Numbered from the stretch's first letter, positions 32,834-38,683 are shown. The stretch is 64,000 nt of DNA from Candidatus Moraniibacteriota bacterium (GCA_963778555.1 CAVZUR010000004.1:180151-244150), one strand, 5' to 3'. Numbers and translations: made by a program. Notes: generated from the letters alone by a model not told the origin.

Positions 32834-33037
32834 CTATACGCTTCCGTCGAGCTCTTTTTTCACGATTTCGAATTCATTCTCCACTTCTCGCAGTCGTTCC
32901 TTGCTGGATTTGATCAGCGCGACGCCCTCTTTCACTTTCTCGAGCGCTTTCTCCACGTCAATCTCCTCCTGTTCCTCGAACCAGGCCGTAATGGATTCGA
33001 GTTTTTTCAGTGCTTCACCCAAAGATTCTTTTTTCAT
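32834..33037 (-). CDS. xseB: exodeoxyribonuclease VII small subunit
   Basis: 67-aa helical protein 'LEEALKKLESI...LEKVKEGVALIK'. 4-nt overlap with xseA. Confidence 0.65.
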   Translation of the reverse strand: MKKESLGEALKKLESITAWFEEQEEIDVEKALEKVKEGVALIKSSKERLREVENEFEIVKKELDGSV

Positions 33038-34585
33038 ACGCCTACTGTTTCCGTTAATCCTGTCACTTCTGATTCTATACTGCCATGACCGAGTTGTATA
33101 TCGATCCGATCCCCGATGGCGAGATTATTCGTCGCGCGGACTACTTTCCCCTGCCTTCGAACCAGTGCATACCCCAGCTGGAGCGCCCGAATCGGATCTG
33201 ATTGGCGTAGTTGCACCTCGGCAGTTTTCAGCCGATCGCGAACACTGATGAGAGCGGCATCGGTTTTCGCCTGCCAAAAGGCCATATCAGTCTCGAATCG
33301 CGCAGCCACCCGTCGGCCATACTCAGGGAACAGCGCCACTGCCTCACGGAAAGCGGCCCGGGTTGTCCCCACTCGCTCGATAATCTCCCCTAACGCCCCC
33401 CGGAGTGTTTCTTCCGACGCGCGGACTCGCTCGCGGACCAGGGTGCGAAATTCCTGCATGACGCGGTACAGCGCCAGCTGAGTGCTTGCCGAGACTCGCG
33501 CGCGCTTCATCCCAGGATACCGAGAGATAGCGTGCCGTTGCTGTCGGTGTGGAAACCATATGATCAGCGGCCAGTGCCGCGAGCGACACATCGCGCTCAT
33601 GACCGATGCCCGCCAAAACAGGAATCTGCGACTTCACGATTTCATTCACCAGCGCCTCGGTATTGAATGCTTGCAGGCTTTCCATACTGCCGCCGCCGCG
33701 GACGATGACGAGCGCAGCGTAGTGTTCCGGCGTGGCGTTGAAGTAGCGGATTGCCTCGATGATTTCGAACACCGCTTTTTTTCCTTCGACCAGCGTCGGA
33801 TAAAAATCGACCTTGAATCCGGTCCGGGCCAAATTCATCGTAAAGTCACCAATGGCCGCACCTTCGCGTGAGGTGATGAGCGCGATCCGTTCCGGAAACT
33901 CCGGAATCGCCCGCTTGCGCTCTAGCGCGAATGCCCCCGCACCCTCGAGCTTTTTATACAGCGCATCGTACGCTTTCTTCAATTCACCCGCACCGGCGTA
34001 CTCGATTACGCCCACCTTGAGCGAAAGTCGGCCAGACGGTTTGTAGATGTCCGGCGCACCCTCCACGATAACCTCATCCCCGATAGCCAGCGTCACACCC
34101 GACACCTCATACTGGTAGCGGAAGATGAGACAGTTGATGATGCTTTCATCGTCTCCGTCTTTGAGTGTGAAATACACTACGCGTTCCCGGATATCCACAC
34201 TTGAGACTTCGCCCTTGAGCCGCGCCGCCATACCGGACAGCTCGATATTCAGGCTATCGAGGAACTGCGAGACCGTCAGCGGTTCTGCTGGACCGACTGG
34301 AGGCTCAGGACCAGGCAGAGTGACATTCGGAGCCTCTTGTGCGGTCTCATTTCCGTCGGGCACATATTGAGAAATGAGCGCGATCAACGTCTTTCCATAA
34401 CGCCGATACTTCGCTTCCTTAATACCCTTCACGGCGCACAAGGTATCTTTATCAGTGGGCAAAACACGGGCCAACTCTTCGAGAGCGGCATTGTTCAAGA
34501 CGCGATATCCCTCCGCGCTCTCCACTCGCGCCTGTTCATCGCGCCACGCTCGGAGCGCCGACAATAACTCGTAGTTCATACCCAT
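33034..34585 (-). CDS. xseA: exodeoxyribonuclease VII large subunit with N-terminal HRDC domain; frameshift at ~33515-33530
   Basis: HRDC-like 'LLSALRAWRDEQARVE..VLNNAALEELARVLPTDKDTL..GIKEAKYRRYG'. OB-fold 'IELSGMAARLKGEVSSVDIRERVVYFTLKDGDDESIINCLIFR'. Catalytic core 'LITSREGAAIGDF', 'VIVRGGGS'. C-terminal helical tail is in a different frame (33034..33560). Confidence 0.75.
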
Positions 34586-34606
34586 CAGTCTTCACTTAGT
34601 CAACTA

Positions 34607-34627
34607 CTTGGAAGTTCGACTTCCAAG
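34607..34627. repeat. REP palindrome copy a 'cttggaagttcgacttccaag' (8 nt downstream of RAYT stop)
   Basis: Perfect 21-nt palindrome, identical to copies c and d. Confidence 0.85.
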
Positions 34628-34805
34628 TTGGACGCTACTCTAAAAACATCGACTCATCAAGCAGGCTTCTGCGCTCCAAAGTCCCTTTAAGGGATTCCTC
34701 TGCGAAGACTATATATTCTTCAGGCCTTCGGAATTGACTCAGCACCGCACCTTTCTCGCATATTCCATTACCACTCTGATGAACAGAATATTCGATCCAG
34801 CTCGA

Positions 34806-34826
34806 CTTGGAGGTCGAACCTCCAAG
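34806..34826. repeat. REP palindrome copy b 'cttggaggtcgaacctccaag' (inside RAYT CDS; compensatory aa>gg/tt>cc)
   Basis: Two paired substitutions keep perfect hairpin complementarity. In-frame, encoding 'LGGSTSK'. Confidence 0.85.
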
Positions 34827-35087
34827 TCGGTGGACACGGTTGTTTAGATTGACATAGGCGCTTATGTGCAAAAGATATTCATTCGAGTCAATATGAATCG
34901 CCTTGAACTTCCCTTGAAAGAGCGCTCCCGTCCGATCATACTTATTGTTGAAGTACTTCGTATATCCCGTTCCCAAACGTTGCATGAATTTCTCAATCCC
35001 CTTTTCAGTCACCGGCTCCAAGATGAAGTGGTAGTGGTTCGGATTCAGACAATAGGCCACAATGTTCACCAACTTCTTATCAGTATC

Positions 35088-35108
35088 CTTGGAAGTTCGA
35101 CTTCCAAG
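35088..35108. repeat. REP palindrome copy c (inside RAYT CDS)
   Basis: Identical 21-mer. In-frame, encoding 'LGSRTSK'. Confidence 0.85.
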
Positions 35109-35303
35109 TTGGTTCTTGCGACGAAAAGAGTTTTCAAATAGACTGCCGATCGGCTCCAAGACATTAAATTCAACCATGCTCTCAATAAAGCGAGGGATGT
35201 CGTCTCGGTCCGAAAAGATGTCCCGTTTTTCGGTACCACGATTATACACGTGATAGAATTCCCCTTCCGCAAAGACTGTCTTTCTCATGTCTCCAGCATA
35301 CCA

Positions 35304-35324
35304 CTTGGAAGTTCGACTTCCAAG
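35304..35324. repeat. REP palindrome copy d (upstream of RAYT start; extended 27-nt palindrome 35301-35327)
   Basis: Identical 21-mer lying between the RAYT start and the end of the LamG giant gene. Confidence 0.85.
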
Positions 35325-35357
35325 TGGGGGAATGGGCTGGCTAACTATATATGGACG

Positions 35358-35881
35358 CTAGCGGCCCTGGGCGTAGAGGGCTTTGATCTCGGCGGCGGTG
35401 AGGATGCGGCTGTAGATGCGGACCTCGTCGATGGAACCATCGAAGAAATTCGTTCCAGTTTCCGAGCCAAAACTAAATTTCCTGGAGGCGTCAGAATCCG
35501 CTGGCAGCGTTGTGGGAGTCGTGAATACGCCGACATTCGAGCTGAGAGCGTTGACGTACAGGACGGGACATTGGAGAGGGATGAATTGTTGTAGGTCGCG
35601 CAGACATGACTCCAGACATTCAAGGGAACCGCGCCGCTCGGGGCATACCATTCCCCATCCGTCCCTGCGAAATTACGATAGAACGCCAGATGTATCCCTG
35701 TCGGTCCGATGGCATCGTCAAGATAGAGGTACCAGCCAGCGCCATCCACTCGTCTCTTTCGAAATGAGCGTTTTGAATGTACCGCCCGGCGCAGTTTCCG
35801 GATAGATCCAGGCACAGGCCGTGAGATCGACAATATCATCGAGGCTCGTCCCAGACCCTGCGCCCACTGATCATCCGTCAC
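35358..35881 (-). CDS. C-terminal LamG/concanavalin-like domain of the giant surface protein (internally frameshifted remnant)
   Basis: 'GEWYAPSGAVPLNVWSHVCATYNNSS' and terminal 'FDGSIDEVRIYSRILTAAEIKALYAQGR' match the repeat consensus but sit in two frames. Confidence 0.5.
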
Positions 35882-35935
35882 CGTCGAAATTCAGCCCCTG
35901 TCCGAGCTTCCCGGGGACTTTGAGCGGGCCATTGG

Positions 35936-38683
35936 TCAAGGTCCCCGTATTCCTCGCTCCACTGATCGGTCATACGCTGTCGTCGTGCTGTACATATCCT
36001 GGGCATTGAAGGACCAGTAGCCTTCAAGCGATGTATCGACGCCGGTGGGGGTAGTGAGGCGATAGAGGTTGGCGATCTCTTCCTGGGAGAGAGCGCGGTC
36101 ATACACCCGCGCTTCATCGAGGGAGCCAGCGAAGGGCACACCGTTGTCGGCTTCAGCGCCGAGACGGAAAGCCACCGCATTGGCCAGGGTGCCGATGTTT
36201 CCGATGGTGCCGGTATCGGTGGCGCCATTGGGAGCGCCATTGATGTAAAGCTCGGTCCCAGTCGCCGAGTCTTGATCCCAAACGAAGGCGAAGTGATTCC
36301 AACCCGCAGCGGTGAAGGTAGAGGCTGAGGTGACGGAGTACTCATCGACCGCATCCGAGACTTCGCAGATGAGGGCGTCGGCGGCGGAGATGTAGCAGAG
36401 ATAGCCGGTATCGGCGGCGGTGATGCCGTTTCGTTTGGCGATGATGGTATCGTCGGTGGTGAAGGTAGAGCGGTTGAACCAGCCGGTCAGGGTGAAGTCT
36501 TCAGTATCAGCGAAGTCAAGAGTGGCCGTATCGGCCGTGGTGGCATAGTCATCGGTGCCGTCAAAGGTGATACCTGAGCCAATCTGTCCGGTGGTCCAGG
36601 TGGGGCCATTGGTGAGGGTGAGGGAAGCGATGGCGTTGGTGGAGGAGTCAGCGGCGGCGGTACCGGTGTTCTCGTCGAGGGTGAAGTAGCCGGTGAGGCC
36701 AGAGTCGAGACGGCCGGTGCCTTGGGATTGGGAGACAGAGGAGTTCACCTTGTCGGGAGCGCTCTGGTCATACAGGGATTTGATCTCGGCAGCAGAGAGA
36801 AAACGATTGTAGACGCGGACTTCGTCGATTTCACCGTCAAAGAACTCTGCCGCGGCAGTTTCAATGGCGCCGATACGAAAGCTCGAGGAAGCATCGGCAG
36901 GCGAAGTACCGACCGGCGTACTGTGTTCCAGCACCGGTACGGAAACACCGTTAATGAAAAAGGTTGGGTCATTGGCGACGGATGAATCATTGTATTCGAC
37001 ACAGACATGCGACCAGGCATTCAGCGGGACAGCGTCATCGGGTGCAGCCCAGCGGCCGATAGTCGTCCCGAAGCCGACCCATAATTGCAGCCGATTCGGG
37101 CTGACAGTATCGCTGAATTCAAAGTCCCACCCCGTCCCAGCATCATCCTTGGACATGATATTGGCGTACGTGGCCGGTATCGAATCCGGATGAATCCAGG
37201 CACAAGCGGTCAAATTGGCGATATCGTCGAGACTCGTCCCTGAGCCAGCATTCACATAGTCTGCCGTCCCATCGAAATCAAGTGCTTGGCCGAGTCTGCC
37301 CGGTACCTTGGGCGGAGCGCTGACCAGTGTCCCCGTATTCCTCGCCCCGCTCCGATCATACGCCGTCGTCGTGCTGTACATATCCTGCGCATTGAAGGAC
37401 CAGTAGCCTTCAAGCGCTGTATCGACGCCAGTGGGGGTAGTGAGGCGATAGAGGTTGGCGATCTCTTCCTGGGAGAGAGCGCGGTCATACACCCGGGCTT
37501 CATCGAGGGAGCCAGCGAAGGGCACACCGTTGTCGGCTTCAGCGCCGAGACGGAAAGCCACCGCATTGGCCAGGGTGCCGATGTTTCCGATGGTGCCGGT
37601 ATCGGTGGCGCCATTGGGAGCGCCATTGATGTAAAGCTCGGTCCCAGTCGCCGAGTCTTGATCCCAAACGAAGGCGAAGTGATTCCAACCCGCAGCGGTG
37701 AAGGTAGAGGCTGAAGTGACGGAGTACTCATCGACCGCATCCGAGACTTCGCAGATGAGGGCGTCGGCGGCGGAGATGTAGCAGAGATAGCCGGTATCAG
37801 CGGCGGTGATACCGTTTCGTTTGGCGATGATGGTATCGTCGGTGGTGAAGGTAGAGCGGTTGAACCAGCCGGTCAGGGTGAAGTCTTCAGTATCAGCGAA
37901 GTCAAGGGTGGCCGTATCGGCCGTGGTGGCATAGTCATCGGTGCCGTCAAAGGTGATGCCTGAGCCAATCTGTCCGGTGGTCCAGGTGGGGCCATTGGTG
38001 AGGGTGAGGGAAGCGATGGCGTTGGTGGAGGAGTCAGCGGCGGCGGTACCGGTGTTCTCGTCGAGGGTGAAGTAGCCGGTGAGGCCAGAGTCGAGACGGC
38101 CGGTGCCTTGGGCTTGGGAGACAGAGGAGTTCACCTTGTCGGGAGCACTCGTGTCATACAGGGCTTTGATCTCGGCGGCGGAGAGGAGGCGATTATAAAC
38201 ACGGACTTCGTCGATGGAGCCGTCGAAGAATTCCGATATATGTGCGCCGATGACAAGATTGGCTGCAGCATCGCTTGTTGCTGTCCCTACCGGCACGTCT
38301 AGCTCCGTAAAACGAACAGAGACGCCATTGATGTACAAAACCGGGTCGTTGGCAGCTGAGGAATCATTGTAGGTCGCGCAGACATGTTGCCAGGCATTGA
38401 GTGTTATCGTACCGTTGGCCGTGAGCCAATTCGCATTATTAGTAGTAAAACTTCGAAAAAGATCCAGAGCATTCCCGCTAGCCACATTGGTAATCTGAAA
38501 TGACCAGCCCGCCGATCCTGTATACTTGGCAGCAATTTGAGCCCAGGTGATAGGAATTGACTGCGGATAGATCCAGGCGCAGACGGAAAGGTTCACTAAA
38601 TCATCTACGATAGCGGCTGATCCCGCATTCACCAAGTCCGCCGTTCCATCGAAATCAAGTGCTTGGCCAAGCTTCCCTGGCAC
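35936..38683 (-). CDS. giant surface protein, central part: two full ~460-aa tandem repeats, each with two LamG/concanavalin-like domains
   Basis: 915-aa ORF with internal near-identical 460-aa repeats ('KVNSSVSQ[AS]QGTGRLDSGLTGYFTLDENTGT...LDEARVYDRALSQEEIANLY...FDGEIDEVRVYNRFLSAAEIKSLYD'). The ORF ends where the repeat junction gains +2 nt. Confidence 0.7.
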   Translation of the reverse strand: MPGKLGQALDFDGTADLVNAGSAAIVDDLVNLSVCAWIYPQSIPITWAQIAAKYTGSAGWSFQITNVASGNALDLFRSFTTNNANWLTANGTITLNAWQHVCATYNDSSAANDPVLYINGVSVRFTELDVPVGTATSDAAANLVIGAHISEFFDGSIDEVRVYNRLLSAAEIKALYDTSAPDKVNSSVSQAQGTGRLDSGLTGYFTLDENTGTAAADSSTNAIASLTLTNGPTWTTGQIGSGITFDGTDDYATTADTATLDFADTEDFTLTGWFNRSTFTTDDTIIAKRNGITAADTGYLCYISAADALICEVSDAVDEYSVTSASTFTAAGWNHFAFVWDQDSATGTELYINGAPNGATDTGTIGNIGTLANAVAFRLGAEADNGVPFAGSLDEARVYDRALSQEEIANLYRLTTPTGVDTALEGYWSFNAQDMYSTTTAYDRSGARNTGTLVSAPPKVPGRLGQALDFDGTADYVNAGSGTSLDDIANLTACAWIHPDSIPATYANIMSKDDAGTGWDFEFSDTVSPNRLQLWVGFGTTIGRWAAPDDAVPLNAWSHVCVEYNDSSVANDPTFFINGVSVPVLEHSTPVGTSPADASSSFRIGAIETAAAEFFDGEIDEVRVYNRFLSAAEIKSLYDQSAPDKVNSSVSQSQGTGRLDSGLTGYFTLDENTGTAAADSSTNAIASLTLTNGPTWTTGQIGSGITFDGTDDYATTADTATLDFADTEDFTLTGWFNRSTFTTDDTIIAKRNGITAADTGYLCYISAADALICEVSDAVDEYSVTSASTFTAAGWNHFAFVWDQDSATGTELYINGAPNGATDTGTIGNIGTLANAVAFRLGAEADNGVPFAGSLDEARVYDRALSQEEIANLYRLTTPTGVDTSLEGYWSFNAQDMYSTTTAYDRSVERGIRGP

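Follow-up and report, generated by a model that had tools for sequence, protein, structure and literature searches.

A probable Patescibacteria version of the REP-RAYT module whose hairpin repeats tolerate translation

The Y1 transposase-like gene and its four hairpins

The window, by which we mean the whole 64-kb stretch of DNA that was analysed, carries on its minus strand a Y1 (HUH) tyrosine-transposase-like, RAYT-like gene (34635..35288) that encodes a protein of 217 aa. Four perfect hairpins accompany this gene, one on each side and two within the reading frame. A preliminary description of the locus had placed a palindrome at 34607, 35088 and 35304, and a variant of it at 34806. A scan of the whole window found exact matches to CTTGGAAGTTCGACTTCCAAG at 34607, 35088 and 35304 and to CTTGGAGGTCGAACCTCCAAG at 34806, the latter differing by two compensated stem changes and an inverted loop; the true stems were longer than had been stated. 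No further match with up to 3 mismatches was detected in the whole 64 kb (chance expectation, 0.01).

All four hairpins have a loop of 3 nt and a perfect stem of 9-12 bp, and as palindromes they are assigned to no strand. The downstream palindrome (copy a, 34606..34628) has a 10-bp stem and lies 7 nt past the stop codon. The upstream palindrome (copy d, 35301..35327) has a 12-bp stem, reads CCACTTGGAAGT-CGA-ACTTCCAAGTGG on the coding strand and lies 15 nt from the ATG. The same palindrome is carried on both sides of the gene, and the two distances are those given before as 8 and 16 nt, counted differently. Internal site 1 (copy c, 35088..35108) has a 9-bp stem and encodes LGSRTSK (residues 62-68). 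Internal site 2 (copy b, 34803..34829) has a 12-bp stem with the loop TCG on the coding strand and encodes LGGSTSK (residues 155-161). Both peptides were read directly from the gene, so the internal copies are indeed in frame with 7 codons each. Copies a, c and d carry the derived GGAAGT allele, and copy b carries the ancestral GGAGGT allele, as discussed below. The predicted energies were -8.2 to -13.6 kcal/mol for the single-stranded DNA hairpins (z -4.6 to -6.7 versus shuffled sequence) and -11.7 to -21 kcal/mol for the RNA hairpins.

The Pfam profile Y1_Tnp (PF01797) matched the protein with 36.9 bits (cut-off 23; E 4.6e-9). The NCBIfam equivalog REP_Tyr_transpos (NF047646) reached 28.8 bits, far under its cut-off of 80. 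Because a PDB sequence search with the family profile gave no match at E<=1, a fold search was needed. Foldseek was run on an AF2 model (pLDDT 71.9), and the top match was the E. coli RAYT-REP complex (4ER8_A, probability 1.0), followed by the TnpA proteins of IS608 and ISDra2. The HUH histidines H85 and H87 (NHYH) and the tyrosines Y138 and Y145 are invariant in 26 homologs. Both tyrosines are located on a long helix after the HUH motif, and the peptide of internal site 2 lies just past this helix. The pLDDT fell below 50 only at residues 49-67 and 156-158, which coincide with the palindrome-encoded residues. The protein also has a C-terminal extension of about 50 aa. With 4ER8 as the best structure match and cognate palindromes on both sides of the gene, the RAYT identity proposed earlier was upheld, in the sense of a Y1/RAYT-like protein.

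No second copy of the Y1 gene was found in the 64-kb window. Relatives of the protein number in the thousands, mostly labelled Moranbacteria, Giovannonibacteria or unclassified, and form 269 clusters at 50% identity and E<=1e-30. The nearest ones are labelled Moraniibacteriota, and the G+C content of the window is 54.7%, which is probably high for Patescibacteria.

Just downstream of the RAYT gene, xseA (33034-34585, minus strand) is split between two frames. One ORF (33344..34585) contains HRDC, an OB fold and profile positions 2-151 of Exonuc_VII_L, and an overlapping ORF (33034..33600) contains profile positions 186-314. The frameshift near 33500-33600 means either that xseA is a pseudogene or that the assembly is in error here. 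An HRDC domain fused to the N-terminus is also unusual for XseA. At higher coordinates, the LamG ORF (35936..38683) is a 915-aa stretch that Laminin_G_3 matches four times, in agreement with the LamG neighbour named previously. One more LamG unit, distributed over at least two frames on the minus strand (35345-35940; ORFs 35345..35881 and 35358..35651), adjoins the upstream palindrome. This broken unit looks like a degenerate terminal repeat or the product of sequencing errors, and the analysis gave no link between it and the palindromes. Nor was the LamG gene shown to be rearranged through REPs, which the preliminary description had listed as a check.

Hairpin sites and alleles in related loci

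The DNA of 95 homologous loci was gathered, and the 87 complete loci were used for occupancy counts. Measured from the start codon, perfect hairpins are found repeatedly at the same four places, namely about -40, +175, +450 and just past the stop. Among the 87 complete loci, the upstream place was occupied in 73, site 1 in 50, site 2 in 40 and the downstream place in 62, and at least three of the four places were filled in 59. The locus had been described as unusually arranged. Our results did not agree with this, since the same four-site layout is found in a large CPR clade and is the ancestral layout of that clade. The internal copies have a patchy distribution on the tree, and their frequency falls in clusters that are more distant. 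No neighbouring gene was conserved across 96 loci, and the adjacent xseA was found beside the RAYT gene in the window only.

The base of the stem (ACTTGG/CCAAGT) is common to the clade, and the top four base pairs and the loop vary by locus, giving 43 distinct stem sequences. Stems were identical in 204 of 242 pairs within a locus, compared with 3.5% of pairs between loci. The same pattern was seen in the encoded peptides. Palindrome-compatible peptides occupied both internal sites in 93 of the 120 nearest proteins, against a background rate of 1.1% for palindrome-compatible 7-mers. The same stem-coded residues were present at both sites in 61 of these 93 proteins (11.6% between proteins), and across homologs both internal sites conserve the outer residues L, G, S and K.

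Covariation was tested at site 2, which was located in 74 loci by a protein anchor rather than by a hairpin search, so that circularity was avoided. At this site 79.7% of cells were paired versus 62.5% in shuffles, and double-sided changes numbered 151 versus 59. All 12 pairs covaried, and none of 500 shuffles reached the observed value (0.419; the maximum of slid-register controls was 0.128). These results support selection on the hairpin as a structure, and this part of the earlier claim about compensatory changes stands.

The other part of that claim, that the copy at 34806 is the variant, has to be turned round. The four closest relatives (protein identity 74-78%) have GGAGGT at every site, and two of them (L201 and L202) have kept the LamG neighbour. 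Site 2 of the window is identical to site 2 of L200 and L203. One compensated G>A/C>T pair is common to the other three copies of the window, whose neighbouring codons are unchanged, and site 1 additionally has a flipped loop. It is implausible that three double mutations arose independently, and the three identical copies are therefore a newer allele that was copied onto three of the four sites. Judged from this sequence comparison, the copy at 34806 represents the ancestral allele GGAGGT-TCG, and the GGAAGT-CGA copies are derived. Between the sites of one locus, the loop orientation was the same in 112 pairs, inverted in 93 and different in 4. Loop orientation is thus random, which implies either frequent loop flips or orientation-blind replacement.

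The preliminary description had also suggested that the 7-aa segments could be insertions, to be recognized by comparison with homologs. The corresponding linkers overlapped in length between homologs with and without the palindrome (26 versus 24 aa, and 36 versus 34.5 aa), so simple insertion of 7 codons does not describe the internal segments.

In 54 of 73 loci the upstream core is followed by a -10-like hexamer, which stands at exactly +2 in 41 of them and precedes the ATG by a median of 8 nt (mode 6). Such a hexamer was found after only 8% of the downstream copies and after 9% and 0% of the internal copies. The window reads TTGGAA-17-TATGCT-6-ATG. Its -35-like hexamer TTGGAA (35318..35323, minus strand), as read from the sequence, is formed by the conserved base of the upstream palindrome's left arm, where the family logo has TTGGAg. 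Its -10-like hexamer TATGCT (35295..35300, minus strand) lies between the palindrome core, 2 nt away, and the ATG, 6 nt away. In a generic promoter scan nothing rose above background, and TATGCT was unflagged with a score of 8 of 12. We infer that a promoter may be built over the upstream hairpin and may produce a near-leaderless mRNA; consensus hexamers may not apply to CPR sigma factors. In the two closest syntenic relatives (L201:3940-4000 and L202:1120-1180), partial right-arm repeats (ACCTCCAAG-CCTCCAAGT) lie between the upstream hairpin and the -10-like hexamer. Such repeats may have been left by slippage or by cutting and rejoining at the base of the stem.

Dispersed copies in Patescibacteria

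GTDB representative genomes were scanned for CTTGGARGT-NNN-ACYTCCAAG, with counts per genome taken as lower bounds. At least 119 dispersed loci were found, nearly all of them in Patescibacteria, and about 35 chance matches to the pattern are expected over the whole GTDB collection. Among the matches listed, 28 were at RAYT homologs and 119 elsewhere, and the source genome of the window was absent. The palindrome had been proposed to be a dispersed REP. It is dispersed in related genomes but unique to its locus within the 64-kb window, so REP status is shown for the related genomes only. The flanks of the homologs contained 11 copies in 443 kb, or about 1 per 40 kb. At this density about 1.5 copies would be expected in the window, and the absence of extra copies there is therefore uninformative.

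Of the dispersed copies among the matches listed, 117 were classed, 50 as intergenic and 67 as lying in ORFs of at least 90 aa. Among these matches the intergenic copies lay between genes of every orientation, and the in-ORF copies used the three frames in the ratio 36 (LGGxTSK) : 25 (LEVxPPS) : 6. Ten host proteins were tested, and nine exceeded curated NCBIfam cut-offs: PheT, LigA, TsaD (four genomes), MurC (two genomes, at the same site) and UvrC. The tenth is a NifS/IscS-like cysteine desulfurase, named from sub-threshold matches only. In-frame hosts occur at L033, L075, L014, L102, L115, L118, L072, L077, L045, L059 and L048. The LigA copy lies in the zinc-finger loop, and a further host, named from sequence motifs only, is an Obg/YchF-like GTPase. 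In TsaD of three genomes and in MurC of two, the palindrome occupies the same position with different alleles.

The copies of one genome resemble each other. Among the matches listed, 68 of 101 pairs from different loci of one genome shared both stem variant and loop, versus 12.7% between genomes, and the allele at the RAYT locus equalled the dispersed allele in four genomes. In 120 TsaD orthologs (75-85% identical), about one third had a palindrome-type peptide in one loop. These peptides have many different inner triplets, nearly all of which obey the reverse-complement codon rule. The orthologs without a palindrome have an unrelated loop of nearly the same length. No clean pair of an empty and a filled site was found. 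Because the loops of TsaD and RAYT with and without palindrome are near-equal in length, insertion is not demonstrated.

Two simpler descriptions were rejected. A 21-nt insertion as the general description was ruled out by the linker lengths and the TsaD loops, and DNA uptake sequences were ruled out because the copies are so sparse (about 1 per 40 kb) and so closely tied to the Y1 gene.

A few close inverted doublets resembling REPINs, with complementary loops, were observed among L060 (3185/3222), L100 (6308/6334), L113 (3108/3139), L073, L092 and L109. Others of this group have a truncated and a full copy abutting, with two frames in one ORF (EVEPP-LGGSTSK).

In logos built from 63 upstream copies, 50 downstream copies and 103 dispersed ones, no GTAG or CGTC tag stood beside the hairpins. 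Stems were perfect, and nothing in the flanks was conserved past the A...T pair. The flanks were nevertheless often complementary to each other, in a sequence that is itself unconserved. At least 2 extra pairs beyond the 23-nt core were present in 41% of copies versus about 6% expected, and at least 4 in 19% versus 0.4%. Intergenic copies at L005, L050, L061, L082 and L107 have locus-specific complementary flanks with stems of up to 19-23 bp. In some RAYTs (L066 site 2) the palindrome extends to about 39 nt and encodes HQ-LGxxxSK-LV(RS), in which the extra residues are a mirror of the codons upstream. It seems that the palindromes either expand outward or lie within hairpins that were already present. 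Both the loop flips and the outward growth of stems could come from replication template switching alone, without the enzyme.

Proposed module, alternatives and meaning

Most descriptions of REP-RAYT systems come from Proteobacteria, Cyanobacteria and a small number of other phyla, and the repeats in these are extragenic and tagged. Their pattern is that of flanking REPs, genome-specific repeat variants and a Y1 enzyme (PMC3116915, PMC5581495, PMC3479197), and the GTAG or related tag that stands beside an imperfect stem-loop is defined in PMC3733652. The present locus is similar to REP-RAYT and REPIN-RAYT systems, such as E. coli TnpA-REP and the REPINs of Pseudomonas, in its Y1 HUH protein (best structure 4ER8), in a gene bracketed by a hairpin that is also dispersed in related genomes, and in genome-specific variants of this hairpin. 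In the lineage of the window the gene may be single-copy and locally syntenic, with one copy in the window and the LamG neighbour shared with L201 and L202. The differences are also clear. The hairpins of the locus are perfect, 21-27 nt long and without the GTAG tag. The copies are sparse (about 1 per 40 kb) and mostly stand alone, with few doublets (at L060, L100 and L113), and about half of them are intragenic (67/117, among the matches listed). Two cognate copies lie inside the reading frame of the enzyme itself, which scores under the NCBIfam RAYT cut-off and has the C-terminal extension of about 50 aa. The cited RAYT papers make no mention of cognate repeats in the RAYT frame, of untagged perfect hairpins of 21-27 nt or of CPR representatives. 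In the open-access literature searched, nothing relevant joined CPR or Patescibacteria with RAYT, REP, IS200 or palindromes.

The gene A of phiX174 and repC of pT181 encode HUH initiators with the nick site inside their own gene. Our locus is similar in that the recognition hairpin, here a putative one, lies within the coding sequence of the HUH enzyme. Those two, in contrast, are single plasmid or phage replication origins, not multi-copy genomic repeats, and are not known to have alleles. Translated palindromes are known as well: GTAG/CGTC REPs occur inside ligase, excision-repair and tRNA synthetase genes of other phyla, and Rickettsia palindromic elements (RPEs) insert in frame (PMC3733652; PMC10969869). 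The palindromes described here are likewise translated in frame in housekeeping genes (LigA, UvrC, PheT), presumably in loops. RPEs are about 100-150 bp long and the CGTC repeats have no dedicated transposase (PMC3733652; PMC10969869), whereas the unit here measures 21-27 nt, lacks a tag, is linked to a Y1 gene, has species-specific alleles at orthologous sites and has copies in the transposase itself.

Taken together, we think that the locus is probably a Patescibacteria (CPR) version of the REP-RAYT module, with repeats that tolerate translation. The 217-aa Y1 HUH enzyme would have as its cognate DNA hairpin a 23-nt core, ACTTGG-NNNN-loop3-NNNN-CCAAGT, of which the base is common to the clade and the top four base pairs and loop are genome-specific. 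One copy stands on each side of the gene and two more at loop-coding positions inside it. The core is the same on both strands, and two of its three frames give the small flexible peptides LGxxxSK or LEVxPPS. Because of this, copies can live in protein surface loops, those of the enzyme included. The enzyme presumably binds extruded hairpins in single-stranded DNA, and its nick-and-rejoin chemistry may spread or replace them. At the DNA level, copying or overwriting (concerted evolution) would keep the copies of a genome alike, and in the window GGAAGT-CGA has displaced the older GGAGGT-TCG at three of the four sites. Because the upstream copy lies exactly between the -35-like and -10-like hexamers, its occupancy or extrusion would throttle the near-leaderless transcription of the enzyme. 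IS200, in which a hairpin at the 5' end controls expression, provides a precedent. The two internal copies may be tolerated passengers or extra binding sites.

A bolder proposal, which we regard as unlikely, is that the hairpins are rewritable cassettes in a hairpin-directed, site-specific conversion system. The Y1 enzyme would time and again overwrite the hairpin top with the current allele of the genome at fixed sites, namely its own promoter, two of its own loops and loops of TsaD, MurC, LigA and others. If this were true, the enzyme and its target could switch specificity in one step, because its own target sequence also encodes these two loops of the enzyme, and the system would be a CPR-wide generator of loop diversity in essential proteins.

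It also seems unlikely that the palindromes are immobile binding sites (operators or roadblocks) of a domesticated Y1 protein or another factor, with roles in gene regulation or chromosome biology and with a homogeneity that comes from co-evolution and short-tract gene conversion. The precise position of the upstream copy over the promoter-like hexamer pair, the palindrome position shared by many species in TsaD and by two in MurC, and the similar lengths of loops with and without the palindrome would suit fixed sites. However, about half of the dispersed copies (among the matches listed) are in unrelated housekeeping ORFs, with a frame bias that resembles tolerance rather than function. The presence of copies is patchy among close orthologs, and genome-specific alleles would need many sites to change together.

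That the locus is an autonomous insertion sequence of the IS200/IS605 type is, in our view, quite unlikely. In that case the flanking hairpins would be ends recognised by TnpA, the whole unit would move, and the internal and solo hairpins would be by-products. The Y1 fold, with the TnpA proteins of IS608 and ISDra2 among the structural matches, the single-strand hairpin ends that adjoin the gene at fixed distances on both sides, and the lack of a conserved neighbour gene over 96 loci are what such a mobile unit would show. The two ends, however, are the same perfect palindrome in random relative orientation (upstream versus downstream: 28 same, 23 inverted), rather than two different and imperfect hairpins, LE and RE. 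Nothing points to multiple copies of the whole element, of which the window holds a single one, and solo palindromes far outnumber gene-linked ones (119 versus 28, among the matches listed). L201 and L202 have kept the LamG neighbour, which suggests that close relatives inherited the locus vertically.

A function of the hairpins in RNA (mRNA stability, translation pausing or termination), with DNA palindromy being secondary, is very unlikely. REPs located 3' of genes are known to stabilise mRNA, and here the predicted RNA hairpins are stable and the downstream copy directly follows the stop codon. Against this, the copies are perfect in Watson-Crick pairing, and the imperfect ones showed no G.U bias, A.C mismatches being as common as G.U (14 versus 10). 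No Rfam family matched in 34000-36000. The missing G.U bias, the missing Rfam match and the missing GTAG-like tag suggest that DNA rather than RNA is under selection. The gene-flanking copies in the window have no T-tract after them, and the sole hit of a terminator scan was internal copy c on the plus strand, antisense to the gene. The upstream copy would lie outside the transcript if the promoter is read correctly, and the position of intergenic copies between genes of every orientation also fits an RNA role poorly.

The idea that LGxxxSK is a conserved protein motif whose coding DNA is palindromic by accident, which the conserved outer residues at both sites would favour, is effectively refuted by the occurrence of the same sequence in non-coding flanks and by covariation, and is further opposed by inner residues that follow the reverse-complement codon rule and are alike at both sites of a protein, by the 1.1% background of compatible 7-mers and by the location of the peptides in low-confidence loops.

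The locus indicates a large and apparently undescribed CPR clade of 269 clusters (50% identity, E<=1e-30). Its repeat is a minimal perfect hairpin that tolerates translation and is found inside essential genes, in two conserved loops of the enzyme presumed to handle it and in the putative promoter region of that enzyme. Annotators should be aware that LGxxxSK and LEVxPPS segments in CPR proteins are repeat-derived. A 217-aa protein together with 23-nt oligonucleotides would make a simple experimental system for HUH hairpin recognition, specificity switching and self-regulation. Finally, the window shows one allele displacing another at three of four sites, which gives a handle on how short repeats may be kept uniform in tiny genomes.
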